This document shows positions 10,640 to 40,263 of a stretch of DNA of 40,263 nt, one piece after another. Below the pieces are notes generated by a model that searched no databases, was not told the origin of the DNA, and worked only from the letters and a program-made list of their open reading frames with translations. The DNA lies in the IMG/VR virus record IMGVR_UViG_3300045988_028614, positions 1 to 40,263 of that record; one strand, given 5' to 3'. This DNA comes from a virus. The position numbers were made by a program, and so were the translations under genes. Positions within the stretch are counted from its first letter, which is position 1. Every line of letters begins with the position of its first letter.

Positions 10640-11335
10640 ATGATACAATTTTATTTTAATAATAAAGCAAGTTATGATGATTTTGAACTCTTAACAATGA
10701 ATAATTTAGAAATGGGAAGAGTTGAGGAAATAGAAGAAGAACAAGAAGTTGAAGGAAATCCATTCGGAACTCTTATAGTTAAAACTGGGAGTTATAAAGA
10801 TTTAAAACATACTATACCAGTTAGAGTTAAGAGAGAAGGGTGGGAGGTTAAAAGAAGAATAATAGAGAATTGGCTATCCAATATTGAAGATAATAGATTG
10901 ATACTTTCTGATAATGACAGCATTTGCTCTAAAGTTAAAAAGGTAAGCATAAGCAATTATAGTAGAAATGGGAATGTTGCCATAGAGTTTGAAATTACTT
11001 TTCTATGCGAACCTTTCTACTTTGATACAAGCGATATAGTTCAAGAATGGAACATTAACACTCCTTTGATATGTGATTCTGATATTGATACTTTGCCAAT
11101 TATAGAATTAAACTCACGCGGTGCAACACAAATCACTATAAATGATGAAACTTTAAGTTTTACACATACTGGAGATGTGATTATAGATAGTATGAGAAAT
11201 ATTTTTAATAAAGAAAATATGCAAGTAATAACGAGTACAGGGGATTTACCTATTATAAAAAGAGGTAAAAATACTCTTAGTGGTAGTGGTTTTACTACTC
11301 TTAAAATAAATACTAGAAATAGATATAGGGGGTAA
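10640..11335 (+). CDS. Distal tail protein (Dit, siphovirus tail family)
   Basis: 231 aa, first conserved structural gene after the tape measure gene. The N-terminus MIQFYFNNKASYDDFELL is typical of Sipho_tail proteins. Confidence 0.7.
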   Translation: MIQFYFNNKASYDDFELLTMNNLEMGRVEEIEEEQEVEGNPFGTLIVKTGSYKDLKHTIPVRVKREGWEVKRRIIENWLSNIEDNRLILSDNDSICSKVKKVSISNYSRNGNVAIEFEITFLCEPFYFDTSDIVQEWNINTPLICDSDIDTLPIIELNSRGATQITINDETLSFTHTGDVIIDSMRNIFNKENMQVITSTGDLPIIKRGKNTLSGSGFTTLKINTRNRYRG

Positions 11336-11337
11336 TT

Positions 11338-13935
11338 ATGGGAAGTAGATTACATTCAAGAACTGCAACAAGGTCAGAAGTTATTTCTACTAACGGAATT
11401 GCTTTTTTAGATGAAATTCTTATAAATGCGACTATAACACAAACAGAAGATGATTTTTATGCTGAAATAGTTTTAGCGGTTAAAAAAGATGAAAGCTTAA
11501 AATACATTTATGACAACTTAATAGAAGAAGCTATTATTACACTAGAAGATGAATACGGGGACGAGTTCTTTAGAATAAGCAATATAAGGAAAGATAAAAG
11601 AACCATTACTATATTCGCAAGACAAATTACAATAGCCGACCAGTTAACATTATTTTTAAAGGATTGTAGACCGGAAAATATGAATGGTCAAGCAACTTTA
11701 AGTAAGCTTTTGAATGATGCTACAGGACGTAACAAGGAGTTTTTCTTAACTTCTGATATATCTGACACGAGTACCGCTTATTATCAAAATATGAGTCTTT
11801 ATAACGCTTTGTTTGGTGCTGATAATGCTTTTATAGTCAGATGGGGCGGAGAAGTCTACAGAAGGCAATATAACTGTAAAATTAATACTAGAGTGGGGCA
11901 AGATAAAGGTGTTCAGATTAAATCAAGAAAGAATTTAACAGGGTTTGAGATTAAATCGAATATTGACGACCTTTGCACTAGGATAGTTCCTCGTGGTTTT
12001 GATGGTATAGAAGCTCCTGTTGTAGAAAGTGAATTAATTAATAATTATAGTAGTGTTTATACTAAAGTTATGGAATTTTCAGATATAAAGGTTAAAAATG
12101 AAAATAATCCCGACGAAGGTTTTGACACTTTAGAACAAGCTCAACAGGCTTTACAAGAAAGAGCTAGAACTCAATTTACTTTATTTAATATAGATAAATT
12201 ACAAGCAACTTATAATATAAATTTCATAGAATTATCTAAAACAGAACAATATAAAGATTATAGTCAAACCGAATCTGTTGAGATAGGTGATACAGTAGAG
12301 GTTATAGAAGATACTTACGGAACTAAAATAAAAGCTAGATGTATCAAGAGGGTTTATTCTGTAACTATGAAGAAAAGATTAAGCACAGAATTATCTAATG
12401 TTAAAAAAGAAAGTAGACCTATTTCAGTTAATGATATAATCGCAGAATTAGAAAAGGAATTACAAACTAAGCCTAATGCAAATTTAAGCGACTATATAAA
12501 TAGTATGATTAATGCAGGATTAAAGGATTCTTATGTGGTTTTAAAGCCTAATGAATTACTTATAATGGATAATAAAGATATTAATAAAGCGGTTAACGTT
12601 ACCCGTTATAATAAGAATGGTTTAGGGTTCTCTACAACTGGTTATTACGGAAAGTATGAATATGGTTTCACTATAGACGGAAAGATAAACGCTTCATTAA
12701 TTACGTTCGGAGCTATGAGTGGACAATATATTCAAGCTGGGAGTATAACCGCTGATAAATTAAGTGTTGATGTAATACAAGAAATAACTAACGTTTTAGG
12801 TGATAAATTTGTTACCAAAACACAATTTGAAGTTTCTTTAGGACAAATAAGAGGGGAAGTAACACAAAAAATAGAAAAACTAAACAATAATATCGTTATA
12901 AATTTATTTAACAATACAATACCTAATTCTATAGAAGGTTGGAGTTCTTATAATGGAGTTGTAAGTTTAGCAACAAGTGAAACCGAATTAAAAATCCATA
13001 TAATAGATACTGGAGTGCAGGCAGATGCTATTTTAATTCAAGAGGATAATATAAATATAATGGTTGATTGCGGTTATAAAGGAACTTCGAATATTGTTAT
13101 AGAATATTTAAAACAACAAGGCGTTAAAAATATAGATTTATTTATAGCAACACACGCACACACTGACCATATAGGAGCGTTCGAAGAGGTGGCTAACAGT
13201 TTTTCTATTAAAAAAGTTATCTACAGAGAAGCAAATTGGACAATAGTAGATCAAATAGAACCGACTGGGTGGGGAACGAGTGCATCTCATAGAAAAATGC
13301 TAGAAGTTATCAAAAATAAAAATATATCTTCTCGAGAAGTCGGGAAAATAGAATTATTCAATATATCTCAAAACGGAAGATTAAGAATAATAAATACTAC
13401 TACAGAAGTTTATGACGAATACAATACTAGAAGTTTAGGTGTTATATATGAACATTATAAAAATAGATTCTTACTAGCTGGAGACATGACTATAGAAAGC
13501 GAAAAAGCCTGTTTAGGTGAATTAGGTAAAATAGATGTTTTGAAAGTTGGTCATCATGGTGCTAATGGTTCAAATTCAGAATCTTATTTAGAAGAAATTA
13601 AGCCTAAGTATGGGTTAATAACTACTGTAACTATAGATCATATAGATAGAAAAAAAGCTTTAGGTTGCTTACAATGGGAAGGTGTTAGAATGTATGATAC
13701 TGGAAGTAACGGAACATTCGTTATAACTTCTAATAAAGAAACTTATAACGTAAGCAATTTAAATAACGAATACAAATTAACTAACCAATGGTGGCATAGA
13801 AGAACTTTGGCTAACGGTTTTGAAGAGTGGGTTTATTTTAAATCAGATGGGGAAATAGCAAAAAATGAAACTGTAAATATAGGAGGCGGAAATTATGAGT
13901 TTGATGGAAATGGAATCTGTAAACAACCTTATTAA
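11338..13935 (+). CDS. Tail-associated lysin-like protein (Tal; prophage tail endopeptidase-type N-region) fused to a C-terminal metallo-beta-lactamase-fold domain and a cell-wall-binding-type repeat
   Basis: The N-terminal roughly 380 aa look like a phage minor structural protein or Tal, positioned after Dit. From about aa 552: HIIDTGVQADAILIQ...MVDCGY...FIATHAHTDHIGA (HxHxDH)...LAGDM...LKVGHHGANGSNSESYLEEIKPKYGLIT (ComEC/Pce-like MBL). The C-terminal end WVYFKSDGEIAKNETVNIGGGNYEFDGNGICK resembles a CW_binding_1 repeat. Confidence 0.7.
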   Translation: MGSRLHSRTATRSEVISTNGIAFLDEILINATITQTEDDFYAEIVLAVKKDESLKYIYDNLIEEAIITLEDEYGDEFFRISNIRKDKRTITIFARQITIADQLTLFLKDCRPENMNGQATLSKLLNDATGRNKEFFLTSDISDTSTAYYQNMSLYNALFGADNAFIVRWGGEVYRRQYNCKINTRVGQDKGVQIKSRKNLTGFEIKSNIDDLCTRIVPRGFDGIEAPVVESELINNYSSVYTKVMEFSDIKVKNENNPDEGFDTLEQAQQALQERARTQFTLFNIDKLQATYNINFIELSKTEQYKDYSQTESVEIGDTVEVIEDTYGTKIKARCIKRVYSVTMKKRLSTELSNVKKESRPISVNDIIAELEKELQTKPNANLSDYINSMINAGLKDSYVVLKPNELLIMDNKDINKAVNVTRYNKNGLGFSTTGYYGKYEYGFTIDGKINASLITFGAMSGQYIQAGSITADKLSVDVIQEITNVLGDKFVTKTQFEVSLGQIRGEVTQKIEKLNNNIVINLFNNTIPNSIEGWSSYNGVVSLATSETELKIHIIDTGVQADAILIQEDNINIMVDCGYKGTSNIVIEYLKQQGVKNIDLFIATHAHTDHIGAFEEVANSFSIKKVIYREANWTIVDQIEPTGWGTSASHRKMLEVIKNKNISSREVGKIELFNISQNGRLRIINTTTEVYDEYNTRSLGVIYEHYKNRFLLAGDMTIESEKACLGELGKIDVLKVGHHGANGSNSESYLEEIKPKYGLITTVTIDHIDRKKALGCLQWEGVRMYDTGSNGTFVITSNKETYNVSNLNNEYKLTNQWWHRRTLANGFEEWVYFKSDGEIAKNETVNIGGGNYEFDGNGICKQPY

Positions 13936-24520: not shown

Positions 24521-24652
24521 ATGAAGAATATTGATAAAATCGCTAACGAATTATTACAAACAAAGACTTGCAAGACTACAAAGGAAGCTTATGAGTATGC
24601 TAGGTATTTAAAGAATTATACTATGATGCTCTACAAACAACAATATAAATAA
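24521..24652 (+). CDS. Hypothetical 43-aa protein (not in the ORF track)
   Basis: ATG with RBS aggaggt; MKNIDKIANELLQTKTCKTTKEAYEYARYLKNYTMMLYKQQYK; followed by a terminator. Confidence 0.45.
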   Translation: MKNIDKIANELLQTKTCKTTKEAYEYARYLKNYTMMLYKQQYK

Positions 24653-24662
24653 ACCATTATAA

Positions 24663-24687
24663 AGGCACTTAATAGGTGTCTTTTTTT
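24663..24687 (+). terminator. Rho-independent terminator
   Basis: ggcact-taata-ggtgtc followed by ttttttt. Confidence 0.55.
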
Positions 24688-24688
24688 A

Positions 24689-25010
24689 TTACTACATTTA
24701 CTACATTTTTAAGTTACATTTTTGTAGTTTTACTACATTTACTACACTTAATTATAAACAAAATGTTACCAATCAATTCATAATTAATTAAAATATTTAC
24801 TACATTTTTAAGCTTACTACATTTTTTACTACATAATTACTACATTTTTAAAACCCTTTGTAAGCTAGTGATACCAACGCTTTATATATATTTACTACAT
24901 TTACTACATTAAATTATAAGACTTTATTATAAGTAATAAAATAATATATATATTTTATATAAAAATGTGCTATATAGAAAATGATGTAGTTTTTGTAGTA
25001 AATGTAGTAA
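24689..25010. repeat. Iteron array A (origin-like): about 10 direct and 3-4 inverted copies of TTACTACATTT around an AT-rich block
   Basis: Direct ACTACA cores at 24691, 24700, 24732, 24741, 24799, 24816, 24829, 24839, 24894 and 24903. AT-only stretch 24911-24967. Inverted copies at 24985-25010. Non-coding. Collinear with 39921..40263+1..60. Confidence 0.85.
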
Positions 25011-25116
25011 GTGATTAATTTTTATTTCTTATAATGGTTCAAAGATGTTCCGAGACGAATAATGAAATAAAATATTTTCACCTCATCACTCCATAATTAT
25101 TTTTTAGAAAAAAGTA

Positions 25117-25144
25117 TTGACAAGATAATTAAGTATGCTATAAT
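25117..25144 (+). promoter_or_regulatory. Conserved early promoter cassette, copy 2
   Basis: TTGACAagataattaagtatgcTATAATtatacttgta. Confidence 0.7.
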
Positions 25145-25174: not shown

Positions 25175-25396
25175 ATGATGGTTATTAAGAAAAGTGAAAT
25201 CAGAAAAACTCTTCAAGATTGGAGAAGAATGGAAGAAAGGACTTGCAAAACCAACATGGCGGCTTATAAAAGTCCGGAGTTAACAACTAGATTTATTAAA
25301 AGAATCGCTTTTATAATTGGTTGTCCTAAAGAATCAGAAGCAGTTAAGGTTTTAAGACCTTATATAAAACAGTTTAAAGAGGAGGGAGTTATTTAA
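25175..25396 (+). CDS. Hypothetical protein
   Basis: 73 aa, RBS gaggaggt. Confidence 0.5.
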   Translation: MMVIKKSEIRKTLQDWRRMEERTCKTNMAAYKSPELTTRFIKRIAFIIGCPKESEAVKVLRPYIKQFKEEGVI

Positions 25397-28515: not shown

Positions 28516-28761
28516 ATGTATAATGATAAAGAAGTGATTATTCCTATAAGCGATTTTAAATTAGGACAATTAGATGCTAGTTTAGTTAAACCTAATTGTT
28601 TTAATTTTTGTTTAGAAGGAGAATGGTTGCTAAGAATAGATAAAGATGGCATAACTTTCAATGAAGATTTCAAAAATAAACTTTCTGCTGATGAATATGC
28701 TATGAAGTTTATTGAGTGTTTAGAAAGAATGGGAATGGTTAAAAATGAAAACTTGTACTAA
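28516..28761 (+). CDS. Hypothetical protein
   Basis: 81 aa, RBS aggaggt. Confidence 0.5.
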   Translation: MYNDKEVIIPISDFKLGQLDASLVKPNCFNFCLEGEWLLRIDKDGITFNEDFKNKLSADEYAMKFIECLERMGMVKNENLY

Positions 28762-29071
28762 TTGCAACAGAACATTCGAAGATATAGAAACTAATTTCTA
28801 TCACCACCCACAAGGGAAAGATGGTTATAGATCTATGTGTAAAGAATGTTTAAAGGAAAAAGCTAGAGAAAAATCAAGAAAGACTATGAAAGATGTTTTT
28901 ATAAATAGAGAAAAGATAAAAGCTAAACGTAAAGAGTTAGGATTAACTATTGAAGAAGCTGCTAAACTTATAGGGATACCATATCACACTTATTTAGGTG
29001 TAGAAATAAGAGATAAAAGAGTTAGGAGAAATACTTGGGAAAAAATAAATAAAGTTTATAGACTAGAGTAA
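28745..29071 (+). CDS. Zinc-ribbon plus XRE-type HTH protein
   Basis: CTNCNR...CKEC then IKAKRKELGLTIEEAAKLIGIPYHTYLGVE. Confidence 0.55.
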   Translation: MKTCTNCNRTFEDIETNFYHHPQGKDGYRSMCKECLKEKAREKSRKTMKDVFINREKIKAKRKELGLTIEEAAKLIGIPYHTYLGVEIRDKRVRRNTWEKINKVYRLE

Positions 29072-29157: not shown

Positions 29158-30126
29158 ATGATTAAGATTAAAGTAAGTCAGAAAGGTTATAAAGTTAAAC
29201 CAACTGCAACTGACATGATAGATATTACAATGGGTATGAAAAATTACCCTTGTATATACGTTGATTATAGAGAAATAAAAGAATATTTAAAAAGAGGTCA
29301 TTCTGTTTTATTAGCAGAATTTCAAGAAGATAGTAAGGATATATTTGAAAGCAGCATTAATTGTTTAGAGTGTATTGCTTTAGATGTAGATAGCAAAGAA
29401 AATGAGATTACATTATTTGAAATGGTTGCATTAGTAAATAAAAAACTAGGTGTTTATCCTATAATAGAATATCCAACTTTTAGTGATACTGATTACACTA
29501 AATTCAGATTGATTTATAGATTAGAAAGTCCTATTGATGTTGAAACTTATAAGTTATTGTATAAGGCTCTACAATGGAAGTTTAATAAATATTTAGATCA
29601 AGCTACAAGCAACGCAAATCGTATATGGGCTGGGACAAATAAAGAGGTAACTTACAGAGAGAACGACATTCCTATAAGTTGTACATTAATTGTAAAACTT
29701 ATAAATGCTTATCAATCTAAGTTAAAGAGGGATAACAAAGCTAAGCAAAAAGTTATTGAAAAAGGGTATACTCAATATGACGGTGAGGATTATATTAAGC
29801 CGCAATATAAAGAAGAGTGTTTAAATAGACTAATATCGTCTATAAGCTTAAAAGACTTCATACAGAAGCATCTAGGTGGAGAATTTAAGTATATGAATGG
29901 TAATTATATTGGTAGATGTGTTTTGCATGGTGGAGATAATAAAGGAGCTTTAGTTATAAATGATGAAAAAGGTATTTACACTTGCTTTACACATTGTGGA
30001 ACTGGTAATTTAATATCAGTTGCTAAAAAGGTTTATGGAATTACTAATTTTTCTAAATTGGCGTTTATATTAGCGCAAGAATATAATTTAAGTATTCCGG
30101 AAGAATGGATTAGGAGGATTAAATAA
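29158..30126 (+). CDS. Primase-related protein: possible AEP-like N-region plus a C-terminal CHC2 (DnaG-type) zinc finger
   Basis: C-terminus LKDFIQKHLGGEFKYMNGNYIGRCVLHGGDNKGALVINDEKGIYTCFTHCGTGNLISV matches the CHC2 primase zinc finger. CIALDVDS in the N-half could be a DxD catalytic motif, but this is weak. Confidence 0.5.
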   Translation: MIKIKVSQKGYKVKPTATDMIDITMGMKNYPCIYVDYREIKEYLKRGHSVLLAEFQEDSKDIFESSINCLECIALDVDSKENEITLFEMVALVNKKLGVYPIIEYPTFSDTDYTKFRLIYRLESPIDVETYKLLYKALQWKFNKYLDQATSNANRIWAGTNKEVTYRENDIPISCTLIVKLINAYQSKLKRDNKAKQKVIEKGYTQYDGEDYIKPQYKEECLNRLISSISLKDFIQKHLGGEFKYMNGNYIGRCVLHGGDNKGALVINDEKGIYTCFTHCGTGNLISVAKKVYGITNFSKLAFILAQEYNLSIPEEWIRRIK

Positions 30127-31929: not shown

Positions 31930-32319
31930 ATGAAAAGACCACTGGGAAAACCTAGAATTTTCAAAACAGAAGAAGAATTTTATAATGCTATAATAGATTA
32001 TTTTGAATATTGTGAAGAAACGGAGAGGTTTCCTAATATAGCAGGAGCAGTAGTTCATATGGGAATAGGTAGAACAACTTTTTATGAATACGAAGCAAAA
32101 TATCCGAACACTTTTAAACTATTTCAAGATATTTTAGAAGATAATGTGCTTCAAAGTAGAGATACAACAACAAAAATTTTCTATCTTAAAAACAAATTTG
32201 GTTATAGAGATAGAATTGAAACAGAAAACACTAACACAAACAACAACGTTAATAAAAACATTGATTTCAGTCATTTATCTAAAGAAGATATAAAGGAGTT
32301 GTTAAGAAATGAATCTTAG
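31930..32319 (+). CDS. terS: Terminase small subunit
   Basis: MKRPLGKPRIFKTEEEFYNAIIDYFEYCEETERFPNIAGAVVHMGIGRTTFYEY is a typical small-terminase HTH N-terminus, located upstream of terL. Confidence 0.8.
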   Translation: MKRPLGKPRIFKTEEEFYNAIIDYFEYCEETERFPNIAGAVVHMGIGRTTFYEYEAKYPNTFKLFQDILEDNVLQSRDTTTKIFYLKNKFGYRDRIETENTNTNNNVNKNIDFSHLSKEDIKELLRNES

Positions 32320-33706
32320 ACAACAACTTCAATGTGAATTAGCGAGGCGTGAATTTTGGGAGTATTGCAAATTGTTATATCCTAGCTTTTATAAAGAAGA
32401 AAGAGGATATTTGAAAGAACTTTGTAATGCTCTCGAAGACTTTTATTATAATGATGATGAATATATGATAATTAATGCACCACCAAGACATGGAAAGTCA
32501 TTTACTGCGGGTAATTTTGTAGAATGGGTATTAGGACAAGATGCTACATTTAAGATTATGACAGGTTCATACAACGAAGATTTGTCTAAGACTTTCAGTA
32601 AAAAAGTAAGAACCACTATAGAAACTGAAAAGATAGGGGAAATGTTTGTATATAGCGATATCTTTCCTAATACTAAAATCAAATATGGTAGTGCAGAAGC
32701 TAAGAAGTGGCAAACTGATGCGAGTTCACAGATAAATTACTTGGCAACATCACCAACAGGGACTGCAACTGGATTTGGTGCTAATATGGAGGTTATAGAC
32801 GACCTTATAAAGTCAGATGAAGAAGCAAACAACGAAACTGTTTTAGAAAAACATTGGGATTGGTTCGTTAATACAATGCTATCAAGAAGAGAAGGTAAAA
32901 AGAAAGTCCTTATCATAATGACTAGATGGAGAACTAAGGATTTAGCGGGACGTATAATTGATATGCTAGAAGAGGAAGGGGCGAAATATACTCATATAAA
33001 CTTCAAGGCTAAGAATGGCGATAAGATGCTATGCGAAGATATATTTAGTTTGAAAGACTATAGTAAGGCTATGAAGATAATGAGTGAAGATACTTTTAAA
33101 GCTAACTATCAACAAGAACCTATGGATTTAAAAGGTGCTTTATATCAATACTTCTTAGAATATGATGAAATTCCTAAGGATATAAGAGCAATAGAGAATT
33201 ACACAGATACTGCTGACGAGGGTGCTGATAGCCTTTGTAGTATAAATTACGCAGTAGGACAAGACGGAAACGCCTATATACTAGATGTATTATTTACTAA
33301 AGAATCAATGGAAACTACAGAAAAGAAATGTGCTGAAATGATCACTAAGGATAATGTTAATTTTGCTAGAATAGAAAGTAATAATGGTGGTCGTGGATTT
33401 AGTAGAAACGTTGAGAGAATTGCTAAAACAGAGTATAATAATAGTATAACTATTTTTAAACCATTCCACCAAAGTGCTAATAAAGTTGCAAGAATACTAA
33501 CAGGAAGTACAGGTGTAATGAGAAATGTTTATTTCCCTAAAGGTTGGAAACTTATGTGGCGAGAGTTTTACGAAGAGTTACAAGGGTATCAGAGAGAGGG
33601 GAAGAATAAGCATGATGATGCACCTGATGCACTAACTGGAGTATATGAAATCTTAGAGAAGAAATATAAAAAGAAACGTAGCTTTAGTGCGAATAGAATT
33701 TTTTAG
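32309..33706 (+). CDS. terL: Terminase large subunit
   Basis: Walker A INAPPRHGKSF, Walker B-like MEVIDDL, and C-terminal nuclease acidic residues (NKHDDAPDAL). Confidence 0.9.
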   Translation: MNLRQQLQCELARREFWEYCKLLYPSFYKEERGYLKELCNALEDFYYNDDEYMIINAPPRHGKSFTAGNFVEWVLGQDATFKIMTGSYNEDLSKTFSKKVRTTIETEKIGEMFVYSDIFPNTKIKYGSAEAKKWQTDASSQINYLATSPTGTATGFGANMEVIDDLIKSDEEANNETVLEKHWDWFVNTMLSRREGKKKVLIIMTRWRTKDLAGRIIDMLEEEGAKYTHINFKAKNGDKMLCEDIFSLKDYSKAMKIMSEDTFKANYQQEPMDLKGALYQYFLEYDEIPKDIRAIENYTDTADEGADSLCSINYAVGQDGNAYILDVLFTKESMETTEKKCAEMITKDNVNFARIESNNGGRGFSRNVERIAKTEYNNSITIFKPFHQSANKVARILTGSTGVMRNVYFPKGWKLMWREFYEELQGYQREGKNKHDDAPDALTGVYEILEKKYKKKRSFSANRIF

Positions 33707-38480: not shown

Positions 38481-38609
38481 ATGAAAAATCGTAAGAGAAG
38501 TAAACAAGTTAAATTCTACCTTACTGAAAAAGAGAAAAAAGCGTTTGATAATTGGAGAGGTGAAAAACCTATTCATATCGCTATAATGGAAATAGTTAAT
38601 GGTAAATAA
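38481..38609 (+). CDS. 42-aa CopG/MobC-like ribbon-helix-helix candidate (not in the ORF track)
   Basis: RBS gaggtg; MKNRKRSKQVKFYLTEKEKKAFDNWRGEKPIHIAIMEIVNGK. A basic tail, a beta-strand (VKFYL) and two short helices fit an RHH pattern. Confidence 0.45.
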   Translation: MKNRKRSKQVKFYLTEKEKKAFDNWRGEKPIHIAIMEIVNGK

Positions 38610-38622
38610 GGAGGATATTAAA

Positions 38623-39882
38623 ATGCAAAACACTAAAAAAGTTTTTTCAATTAATGATGTTAAAAATAAAAAGAGCAACGTTTCTCTTATACAATTTCCG
38701 GAGGTTAAATATTTAAAAGATGGCGGAACAGTTCCAATAAAGACAATGGCAAATTTAGAATATTTGTTAAATCATTATGGAATAAATCCAGTTATGAATA
38801 AGATAACTCATGAATTAACTTTACAAATGGAAGGCAGAAAGTTTAAAAAAAGAGGTGAGATGCTGACATTTGTATATGATTTACAAGTGAAAGAAGGTTT
38901 AAATCTTAATAGGGCGGTATGCGACGAATATTTAATTGATATAGCTAACAGAAAAGAAATAAATCCCTTTGTAGATATGTTGAAGAAGTATAGAAATGAT
39001 AATCACGATATAGTGCTTGATGTGTTTGAAAAGTGTTTAACGCTTCAAGATGATGCTTTAGAAGATGCAGAGTATTATTTCACTTTGTTTTATAAATGGC
39101 TTCTAAATGTTGTTAAAATGGCTCACAATGAGCTAGAAAACCGTTATAGTTCTAATGGAGTACTAACACTTCAAGGGGAACAGGGATGCCGTAAATCAAC
39201 GTTTGCACGTAAATTAATGCCGCTTAATGACTTGTTCAAAGATGGAGTATCTTTAGACCCTGATAAAACTGATAGCGTGATTCAAAATACTAAATATATT
39301 CTTGTTGAGTTAGCAGAATTAGATACAACTTTAAAAGCTGACCAAGGTAAAATTAAGCAGTTTTTAACTAATACAACTGATGAATATAGAGTTCCGTTTG
39401 GTCGTGTCGCTGAAATATATCCAAGGCTAACAAGTTATATTGCTAATGTTAATAAAAAAGATTTCTTAAAAGATGAAACAGGTTCAAGAAGGTTTTGGGT
39501 AATTCCTGTTAAATCTTGTAATATAGAAGAGTTTGACAATTTCAATATGTTTGAGTTTTGGGGCGCAGTATATGATATGTGGTTGACTAATTATAGTATT
39601 GATTGGTTGACCAAAGAGGAAGAAGCGAAACAAAAAATAATTAATAGACAATTCAATGCTCAAACAGATATATCAATCATATTAGATGACAAAGTAGACT
39701 GGGAAAGTAACGACTTGAGAGTGTACAAGCTTACAGAAATAGCTGAAAAGCTCAATATAAAAGAAAAGAAAGCACTTGCTAATGAGCTTATGAGGAGAGG
39801 AATACCTAACCAACCATATAAAGTTGATGGTAAATCAATCCGTGGTTACAAAATACCATTTATAAGAGATTACTGGGAATAA
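38623..39882 (+). CDS. VirE-family (virulence-associated protein E / primase-helicase C-terminal type) P-loop NTPase, putative replication helicase or initiator
   Basis: ATG 38623 with RBS aaggagg (the track starts at 38599). Walker A LTLQGEQGCRKSTF, Walker B ILVELAELD, and the family motif YRVPFGRVAEIYPRLTSYIANVNKKDFLKDETGSRRFWVIPV. Confidence 0.75.
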   Translation: MQNTKKVFSINDVKNKKSNVSLIQFPEVKYLKDGGTVPIKTMANLEYLLNHYGINPVMNKITHELTLQMEGRKFKKRGEMLTFVYDLQVKEGLNLNRAVCDEYLIDIANRKEINPFVDMLKKYRNDNHDIVLDVFEKCLTLQDDALEDAEYYFTLFYKWLLNVVKMAHNELENRYSSNGVLTLQGEQGCRKSTFARKLMPLNDLFKDGVSLDPDKTDSVIQNTKYILVELAELDTTLKADQGKIKQFLTNTTDEYRVPFGRVAEIYPRLTSYIANVNKKDFLKDETGSRRFWVIPVKSCNIEEFDNFNMFEFWGAVYDMWLTNYSIDWLTKEEEAKQKIINRQFNAQTDISIILDDKVDWESNDLRVYKLTEIAEKLNIKEKKALANELMRRGIPNQPYKVDGKSIRGYKIPFIRDYWE

Positions 39883-39920: not shown

Positions 39921-40263
39921 AATTACTACATTTTCGGATTCAGTTACTACATTTTTATGTAGTAATACTACATTTTTACTACATTTTTACTACATTTTGC
40001 GGTTACATTTTTGTAGTTTACTACATTTTTAACAATAAAACTTATTGATAAACTGTTAAAACTCATTCATATATTATTAATTACTTTACTACATTTTTAG
40101 GGTTACTACATTTTTTACTACACTTTTACTACATTTTTGTAACCCCTTCAAACCGTTGGTATCACTAGCTTTATATATATTTACTACATTTACTACATTT
40201 ATTTTCAAGAGTTTATTTATAATAATAAATTATATATATATTTTTTTATAAATATTTGCTATA
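39921..40263. repeat. Iteron array B (origin-like), proximal part; continues at 1..60
   Basis: Direct ACTACA cores at 39925, 39946, 39967, 39978, 39989 (11-nt phasing), 40020, 40088, 40105, 40117, 40128, 40183 and 40192. Inverted copies near 39958 and 40012. AT-only block 40200-40250. Confidence 0.85.
40240..40263. repeat. 24-nt terminal overlap with positions 1..24 (circular closure of the contig)
   Basis: atttttttataaatatttgctata occurs at both ends. Confidence 0.9.

Follow-up and report, generated by a model that had tools for sequence, protein, structure and literature searches.

Paralogous iteron modules as probable Rep-dependent replication origins in a phiCP39-O-type Clostridium perfringens siphophage

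Array A is a noncoding block of short repeats at positions 24689-25010 of a 40,263-nucleotide (nt) viral DNA (IMG/VR record IMGVR_UViG_3300045988_028614, positions 1 to 40,263; hereafter the window). Judging from the sequence, we put at about 0.7 the probability that the phage has its replication-origin module in two paralogous copies and that array A is one of them. The module would be of the type found in the pathogenicity islands of Staphylococcus aureus (SaPIs) and in P4 and would depend on a Rep helicase, and its two copies would be positioned like oriL and oriR of phage SPP1. The second copy, array B, adjoins the gene for a VapE-like superfamily 3 (SF3) helicase, which is the candidate Rep. 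Because the same 24 nt stand at the start and the end of the window, it is a circularly assembled, whole phage genome. Its DNA is 93 to 99% identical to that of C. perfringens siphophages of the phiCP39-O/phiCP26F group (HMD-PC1, PMQ04, CPQ4, 17DYC, XP41-N3, CPD1, and phiCP9O, 13O, 26F, 34O, and 39-O). The + strand carries every gene of the window, and the GC skew, positive genome-wide, is for that reason uninformative on the origin.

Organization of array A

As an exact 8-mer, TTACTACA is present at 28 places in the window, where 2.2 ± 1.6 would be expected (none of 100 shuffles reached 28); 12 of these occurrences fall in array A, 14 in array B, and 2 elsewhere. At no more than one mismatch, the 11-mer is found 24 times (expected, 4.3 ± 2.0). 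Array A spans 322 bp and has TTACTACA(T) in 10 direct copies and 3 inverted ones. The direct copies start at 24689, 24698, 24730, 24739, 24797, 24814, 24826, 24837, 24892, and 24901, with start-to-start spacings of 9, 32, 9, 58, 17, 12, 11, 55, and 9 nt, and three pairs abut. An earlier reading of the letters alone (the original prediction) had described about 10 direct copies of an 11-bp unit, some of them abutting. The number of copies and the abutting pairs hold, but the conserved unit is 8 to 9 nt long (TTACTACAT) and the full 11-mer is exact in 7 of the 10 copies. From left to right, the module comprises the following features.

24689..24747, + strand: distal iteron cluster, two abutting TTACTACAT pairs (24689/24698 and 24730/24739)
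24797..24845, + strand: middle iteron cluster, four direct copies with spacings of 17, 12, and 11 nt, invariant in 12 phages
24862..24879, - strand: conserved core of about 15 to 18 nt, GCTAGTGATACCAACGC, inverted relative to the array B copy CGTTGGTATCACTAG at 40154-40168 (+ strand)
24892..24909, + strand: proximal abutting iteron pair, immediately left of the AT block
24910..24983, no strand: AT-rich block, a putative DNA-unwinding element, 89% A/T over 74 nt
24984..25010, - strand: three abutting inverted iterons, starting at 24984 (2 mismatches), 24993 (1 mismatch), and 25002 (no mismatch)

A partial inverted copy, GTTACATTTTTGTAG, lies at 24713-24727, between the two distal pairs. The distal cluster aligns with the matching part of array B and is invariant across 12 phages, and the abutting pair beside the AT block is also present in those relatives whose gap after the helicase gene was displayed. 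The stretch 24911-24967, which had been called pure A/T, is in fact 93% A/T (53 of 57 nt), and its longest pure run is the 33 nt of 24934-24966. No 60-mers of the genome are richer in A/T, and none are less stable, than those of the AT blocks of arrays A and B, at -54.1 and -54.4 kcal/mol against a genome mean of -71.4 (standard deviation [SD], 4.2); for array A, the stability is more than 4 SD below the mean. The three inverted copies predicted to follow the AT stretch are present at 24984-25010 and form perfect inverted arms of 17 nt with 24892-24908.

At the right end of the AT block, both arrays have TGCTATATAG (24967-24976 in array A and 14-23 in array B), which looks like an extended -10 element or like a landmark for priming or melting. 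A TATAG-type motif stands at the same place in several relatives, too. A scan with the consensus promoter gave no acceptable -35/-10 pair in the AT block around TGCTATATAG, and an Rfam scan of the region returned nothing relevant (E = 1, far under the gathering score). The DnaA box TTATCCACA, allowing one mismatch, occurs 17 times in the window (13.7 expected), and none of these sites is in or beside either array.

Array B is a paralogue of array A

Array B lies 15.2 kb from array A, between the minor-head genes and the scaffold gene:

39923..40263 and on across the circular junction to 60, + strand: array B, the paralogous module, beginning 40 nt past the helicase stop codon

Its copies of TTACTACA are at 39923-40197, with inverted copies (minus strand) at 44-60. 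The two arrays align over about 330 nt, from the iterons and their spacers through the AT block to the inverted copies, with a partial palindrome and the TTTATATATAT motif included. The similarity stops right after the inverted copies, and from there to the two promoters downstream the DNA is unrelated.

The differences between A and B, inverted core included, are identical in all of the C. perfringens phages compared, which implies that the duplication is older than the group and that both copies have been kept independently. Whole-unit insertions or deletions (indels; 11 and 21 nt) distinguish phages in the distal cluster of array B, and none occurs in array A. In L009, a more distant relative, the sequence of the array B AT block has drifted, but the block is still A/T-rich and the iterons beside it are unaltered. 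Both the unit indels and the drift beside intact iterons are as expected for protein-binding repeats that flank an unwinding element. The window itself has one 11-nt unit in array B (39965-39975) more than all relatives, and phiCP13O and phiCP34O (L004 and L005) are without a 21-nt unit.

At no more than three mismatches, the core CGTTGGTATCACTAG is found within the arrays of 9 of 13 lineages (the window, L002, L007, L009, L010, L012, L014, L015, and L016), independently of the iteron type. It occurs in either orientation and at times on both sides of the AT block. The core is probably the site of a second factor that all lineages have in common; this could be the primase, a host protein, or some conserved portion of Rep.

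Downstream of array B, a stem-loop, GTGAAGGAGG-TTT-CCTCCTCAC, lies at 86-110, before the -35 element of the late promoter at 120. It has one variable column among the C. perfringens phages and is unchanged in L009. With no T run, it does not count as a terminator and may be an RNA element or an operator.

Module A is strongly conserved

We examined column variation in an alignment of 12 C. perfringens phages. Not one of the 96 iteron columns varies, compared with 47 of the 375 other columns (Fisher P = 2.6e-5). Over the module as a whole (24686-25012), 6 of 327 columns are variable (1.8%), whereas the figure is 21% for the spacer to the promoter and 6.6% for the start of the next gene. The array A module is thus under strong purifying selection.

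The candidate initiator and the primase

Two proteins of the window would act with the arrays:

38599..39882, + strand: VapE-like SF3 helicase of 427 amino acids (aa), the proposed initiator (Rep); PF05272, E = 7e-41; phrog_1313
29158..30126, + strand: primase (Pri) of 322 aa, with a predicted N-terminal PrimPol-like domain of the archaeo-eukaryotic primase (AEP) type and a C-terminal DnaG-type zinc-binding domain (ZBD)

In a phmmer search with the helicase, SaPI1 Rep1 (7PDS, E = 7e-11) was the only sequence match among solved structures. The helicase is about 16% identical to Rep1. The AlphaFold2 (AF2) model of the helicase has a pLDDT of 86, and its residues 357-420 have the predicted order H-E-H-H-E-E, a winged-helix topology, so that a C-terminal winged-helix domain is predicted at about residues 355-422. 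When the model was run through Foldseek, all six chains of 7PDS (A to F) came out on top, matching over their full length (E of about 2e-16, TM of 0.68), followed by NrS-1, vaccinia D5, and MPXV E5. In phiCP39-O (EU588980.1, 6869-8149) and CPD1 (MH999280.1, 870-2150), the features listed under the helicase match are labeled "integrase" and "hypothetical protein." Our domain scan of the window protein found no integrase domain and did find the VapE/SF3 domain.

In the primase, Pfam recognizes the zinc ribbon only (PF01807; "CHC2 zinc finger protein"). The AF2 model (pLDDT, 89) matches the PrimPol 6ZP9 and the ZBD 1D0Q in Foldseek, and D76-x-D78 is invariant. Many homologues of the helicase are primase-helicase fusions of about 700 aa, and such Pri-Rep fusions tie the primase and the helicase to one function. 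Together with the fold of the primase, they indicate that the phage encodes Pri, Rep, and the origin.

Domain scans covered 30 window proteins and the annotation of the close relative HMD-PC1; neither held a Rep_3/RepA-type or O-type initiator. The original prediction had noted that no initiator sits beside array A. This is true of array A in that the helicase gene is elsewhere, but a candidate does exist: it is the protein that had been called "VirE-like," and its gene is beside array B.

Helicase and array are paired in relatives

Loci of relatives were gathered through homologues of the helicase and their flanking DNA, from the Clostridium butyricum phage CB452P1, IMG/VR contigs, and metagenome or genome contigs. 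The relative lineages are CB452P1 and L007 to L017 (12 in all), with helicases 36 to 65% identical to that of the window. CB452P1, at 47%, has essentially only the replication/recombination module in common with the window. In every relative collected, the helicase gene is followed by a noncoding gap of 280 to 1,700 nt, and the primase gene usually comes directly before the helicase. The gaps that were displayed contain short repeats and, beyond an AT-rich block that often ends in ...TATAG, opposed copies of the same repeats. Helicase and array are therefore adjacent in 13 lineages, counting the window and its 12 relatives. On plasmids, the closest VapE is that of Terrisporobacter pTM2 (35% identical), and no clear array follows its gene.

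The iterons are specific to the lineage: TGTT(A/C)CCT, GGTAACC, GGTAAC(T/C), TTGCTACA, GGGTACAA, TGTTAC(C/T), AGTTACT, TTGTAAYTAAAA, and TGTTGCCGC. The iteron of the window recurs in L009, whose helicase is 65% identical overall. Identity is 54% in the N-terminal domain and 64% in the ATPase; it reaches 93% in the putative recognition helix and 82% in the C-terminal domain, compared with 34 to 59% in the C-terminal domain for lineages with other iterons. In the helicase tree, both members have the same iteron type in three of three well-supported sister pairs. Among 12 window proteins tested, the primase and the helicase alone have homologues in all array-bearing lineages.

A rule linking "TACA" iterons to an Asn-type recognition helix was dropped, with L016 an exception. 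We also abandoned a division of all lineages into two iteron-polarity classes, which presupposes that diverged units can be read in one shared orientation; the contrast between the window and L012 is the only safe one.

The number of module copies varies. CB452P1 has three, L010 and L015 have two, and the temperate relatives L013 and L017 have one; for these four lineages the counts of extra arrays are limited to 21-kb loci. In L010 and L015, the scaffold gene and a Mu-F-like minor head gene have the extra array between them. Likewise, array B and the third array of CB452P1 are directly upstream of the scaffold gene.

Comparison with known origins

The closest match is the pri-rep-ori segment of the SaPIs (SaPI1 Rep1, 7PDS; SaPI5 PriRep5). 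SaPI Reps are self-loading SF3 helicases whose C-terminal winged helix binds iterons, and the SaPI origin is a segment of about 300 bp directly downstream of rep, with an AT-rich center and at least two opposed iterons per side (PMC9371898; bioRxiv 10.64898/2026.10.17.759575). The window likewise has an SF3 helicase with a predicted C-terminal winged helix. There is also a primase partner, which may be separate or fused; it is separate in the window and fused in many relatives. The size of about 300 bp, the short iterons, the AT-rich center, and the opposed iterons, at least two on each side, are all found in array A. A position directly after rep, on the other hand, is found for array B and for all 12 relative lineages but not for array A, which qualifies as a SaPI-type origin only as a detached duplicate. 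Array B agrees with the SaPI origin in every one of these points. Other differences are that the SaPI is a satellite island and the window a lytic siphophage; that the iteron units are 5 to 6 nt in the SaPIs and 8 to 9 nt here; that the layout of the window is asymmetric, with 10 to 12 copies on one side and 3 on the other; that the module is present twice (three times in CB452P1), with array A detached from rep; and that the window has the additional conserved core of 15 to 18 nt and a primase combining an AEP with a DnaG-type zinc domain.

In its placement, the pair of arrays resembles oriL and oriR of SPP1. About 13 kb from oriL, the series of head genes is interrupted by the oriR segment, which is "bracketed between transcriptional signals" and has a direct-repeat-plus-AT organization (PMC6316719). 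According to PMC6316719 and PMC3485210, oriL is the reconstituted theta origin; gp38 bound to oriR has been proposed to stall forks and so to bring about a recombination-dependent switch to concatemers, and a single-strand annealing protein (SSAP), an exonuclease, a resolvase, and an SSB (single-stranded DNA-binding protein) have been proposed to restart replication. In both phages, two modules of direct repeats and AT-rich DNA lie 13 to 15 kb apart on the circularized genome. Array B occupies the same site as oriR, between a Mu-F-like minor head gene and the scaffold gene, as do the second arrays in L002, L010, and L015, and both SPP1 and the window have the SSAP, nuclease, and SSB toolkit for later concatemeric replication. 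The initiators differ. SPP1 uses gp38 with the loader gp39 and the DnaB-type helicase gp40, whereas the candidate of the window is itself an SF3 helicase, and neither the scanned proteins of the replication region nor the close relative's annotation contained a gp38-, gp39-, or gp40-like protein. Furthermore, oriL is inside the initiator gene, while the arrays of the window are intergenic and the late-region array adjoins the helicase gene.

The alpha protein of P4, an SF3 primase-helicase with a C-terminal DNA-binding domain, recognizes the same short repeat at ori and at crr, a few kilobases apart. P4 and the window thus both have one short repeat at two separate loci, with the difference that crr is an auxiliary repeat element, whereas A and B are full paralogues, each with an AT block and opposed repeats. 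Direct iterons beside an AT-rich unwinding element are also found in iteron-controlled theta plasmids (pSC101, R6K, RK2, and P1 oriR) and in lambda ori with its O protein. Those systems recruit the DnaB of the host; here, by analogy, the helicase would be its own loader. The original prediction had placed array A among these iteron-plasmid and phage origins. The origin reading is supported by the paralogy of A and B, by the helicase-adjoining position of array B, by the layouts in relatives, and by the constraint on the module; the class assigned is not. Because no DnaA boxes are near the arrays and no Rep_3-type protein is encoded in the material scanned, we compare the arrays with the self-loading SF3 Rep origins of SaPIs and P4 and not with origins of the RepA/pi-type plasmids or of lambda O.

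Proposed mechanism

From this comparison, we infer that the arrays bind Rep, fire as origins, and support replication in the theta mode. The VapE-like SF3 helicase (Rep, 38599-39882) would bind the TTACTACAT iterons through its C-terminal winged-helix domain. Rep hexamers would form on the iteron sets that oppose each other across the AT block (24910-24983), which would melt, and the helicase would load itself, as the loader-free SaPI Reps do. The distal iteron clusters at 24689-24845 may raise the local Rep concentration. The AEP-type primase (29158-30126) would then prime, and the replisome of the host would carry out bidirectional theta synthesis. A later switch to concatemers would be helped by Gam, Erf, an ERCC4-type nuclease, and SSB, whose genes lie a short way downstream of array A.

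Evidence against the origin reading and alternative explanations

Several observations weigh against the origin reading. Array A does not adjoin the helicase gene, from which it is separated by about 13.6 kb on the upstream side. A transcriptional role is conceivable, since operon promoters follow both arrays and also the extra arrays found in relatives. The similarity of iteron position weight matrices, compared with domain identity in 11 lineages, gives a weakly positive correlation (Spearman coefficient of about 0.27; Mantel P of 0.02 to 0.04), and this signal is present in all three helicase domains and so is not specific to the C-terminal one; the recognition helix by itself is not significant. 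Because the loci were chosen through the helicase, the co-occurrence of helicase and array is partly built in, although their adjacency is not. Finally, the unit of the window (TGTAGTAA, read from the right of the AT block; 24892-25010) and that of L012 (TGTAGCAA; 11335-11450) are one base apart, and yet the window units point away from the AT block and the L012 units towards it. To our knowledge, no current loading model accounts for both polarities.

The alternative that survives best, although we consider it somewhat unlikely, is that one of the two arrays, possibly A, binds Rep without initiating replication. Array A could be a fork barrier that triggers the switch from theta replication to concatemers, as has been proposed for SPP1 oriR, or a cis enhancer of array B, like P4 crr. 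SPP1 has two similarly organized origins about 13 kb apart, and theta replication was reconstituted for oriL only (PMC6316719; PMC3485210). The window has an SPP1-like toolkit (Erf, ERCC4 nuclease, SSB, and Gam) just downstream of array A, and the temperate L013 and L017 have the post-helicase array as their only one within the 21-kb loci, from which the extra copies appear dispensable for replication as such. Against this, array A has the whole architecture of an origin, namely, the proximal pair, the AT block, the opposed copies, and the core element. Array A is no less conserved than B, with copy number changes in B only, and for binding alone the least stable DNA of the genome would be superfluous. 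That array A is complete in architecture and extremely conserved argues for, at the least, a fully competent Rep-loading site.

A further account, which we regard as unlikely, gives the origin modules two jobs. Array A stands just before the early operon, and array B, like the pre-scaffold arrays of relatives, just before the late structural operon. From these positions, the Rep-loaded modules would couple replication to the switch from early to late transcription, or they would divide the genome into two replication/transcription domains. The opposite iteron polarities of the window and L012 would mean, in addition, that the self-loading SF3 helicase can assemble productively in either orientation. 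A comparable case is the simian virus 40 (SV40) T antigen, which at its origin represses early and activates late transcription.

It is very unlikely that the arrays are operators or enhancers of the early (A) and late (B) promoters, bound by Rep or another protein and with no direct role in replication. A perfect consensus promoter heading an operon does lie 60 to 110 nt downstream of each array, and in L002, L010, and L015 the extra arrays recur just upstream of the scaffold/capsid operon. The window also encodes other candidate DNA-binding proteins: a Zn-ribbon/HTH_3 protein (28745-29071) and Bro-N/AntA proteins. However, nowhere is the region less conserved than in the DNA linking array and promoter (21% variable), and the homology of A and B ends before it. 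An AT block between opposed repeats is the anatomy of an origin and not of an operator, homologues of the HTH_3 protein are found in just 2 of 11 array-bearing lineages, and in several relatives the post-helicase module reaches directly into the ribosome-binding site of the next gene.

A partition (centromere), packaging (pac/cos), or recombination site is scarcely plausible: repeat arrays of similar size are known from parC/parS and cosB/pac regions, but no ParA, ParM, TubZ, or ParB was found in the HMD-PC1 annotation or the 30 window proteins scanned, so that a centromere role, for which the original prediction had seen no motor gene either, is unsupported, the terminase genes (31930-33706) are 7 to 8 kb from either array, phiCP39-O-type GenBank records begin near terS and not at an array, two direct pac sites 15 kb apart would lead to subgenomic packaging, and the arrays of relatives go with primase and helicase and not with packaging genes.

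Flanks of array A

Array A is set between a terminator and a promoter, both of which the original prediction had reported, the promoter at about 105 nt downstream:

24661..24683, + strand: Rho-independent terminator with a 10-bp stem, a 3-nt loop, and a T run, ending the preceding accessory-gene block
25013..25116, no strand: spacer from the array A module to the promoter, poorly conserved and outside the module
25117..25144, + strand: consensus sigma-70-type promoter TTGACA-N16-TGnTATAAT, 107 nt past the last array A copy

The early operon that starts at this promoter encodes a 73-aa protein, Gam, Erf, the ERCC4 nuclease, ThyX, SSB, the primase, and others. In 17DYC (L018) and XP41-N3 (L019), unrelated sequence replaces the 43-aa open reading frame (ORF) and the terminator upstream of array A. 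The homology breakpoint, a mosaic junction, is at the left edge of the module in both phages, which indicates that the module was retained across a mosaic boundary. The 43-aa and 73-aa ORFs flanking array A have a 31-nt segment in common (24562-24592 and 25237-25267; 74% identical), which may be a remnant of a duplication that took in the array A module.

Significance

Origins of this kind are known, as in the SaPIs; for phiCP39-O-type phages, such an origin has not yet been described or annotated. We found no description of a phiCP39-O-type replication origin and initiator in the literature searched, and the arrays are not annotated in any GenBank record that we examined. Phages of this type are under study as biocontrol and therapy agents against C. 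perfringens. A replicon of Pri, Rep, and an iteron origin would give their genomes a mechanistic annotation, and identifying the helicase corrects the label "integrase," which wrongly hints at a temperate lifestyle. It would also define cis and trans parts for phage engineering or for Clostridium vectors.

The relatives form a natural series in which homologous self-loading SF3 helicases are combined with different iterons, with one to three origins, and possibly with both polarities. This series could be used to study how a winged helix reads its iteron and how the helicase is loaded. Assembly in either orientation, if true, would bear on whether Rep double hexamers are loaded head to head or tail to tail. 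Lastly, SPP1 has its oriR at a matching position although the initiators are unrelated, and this suggests that a second origin-like site in the head-gene block has a general function in SPP1-like siphophages.

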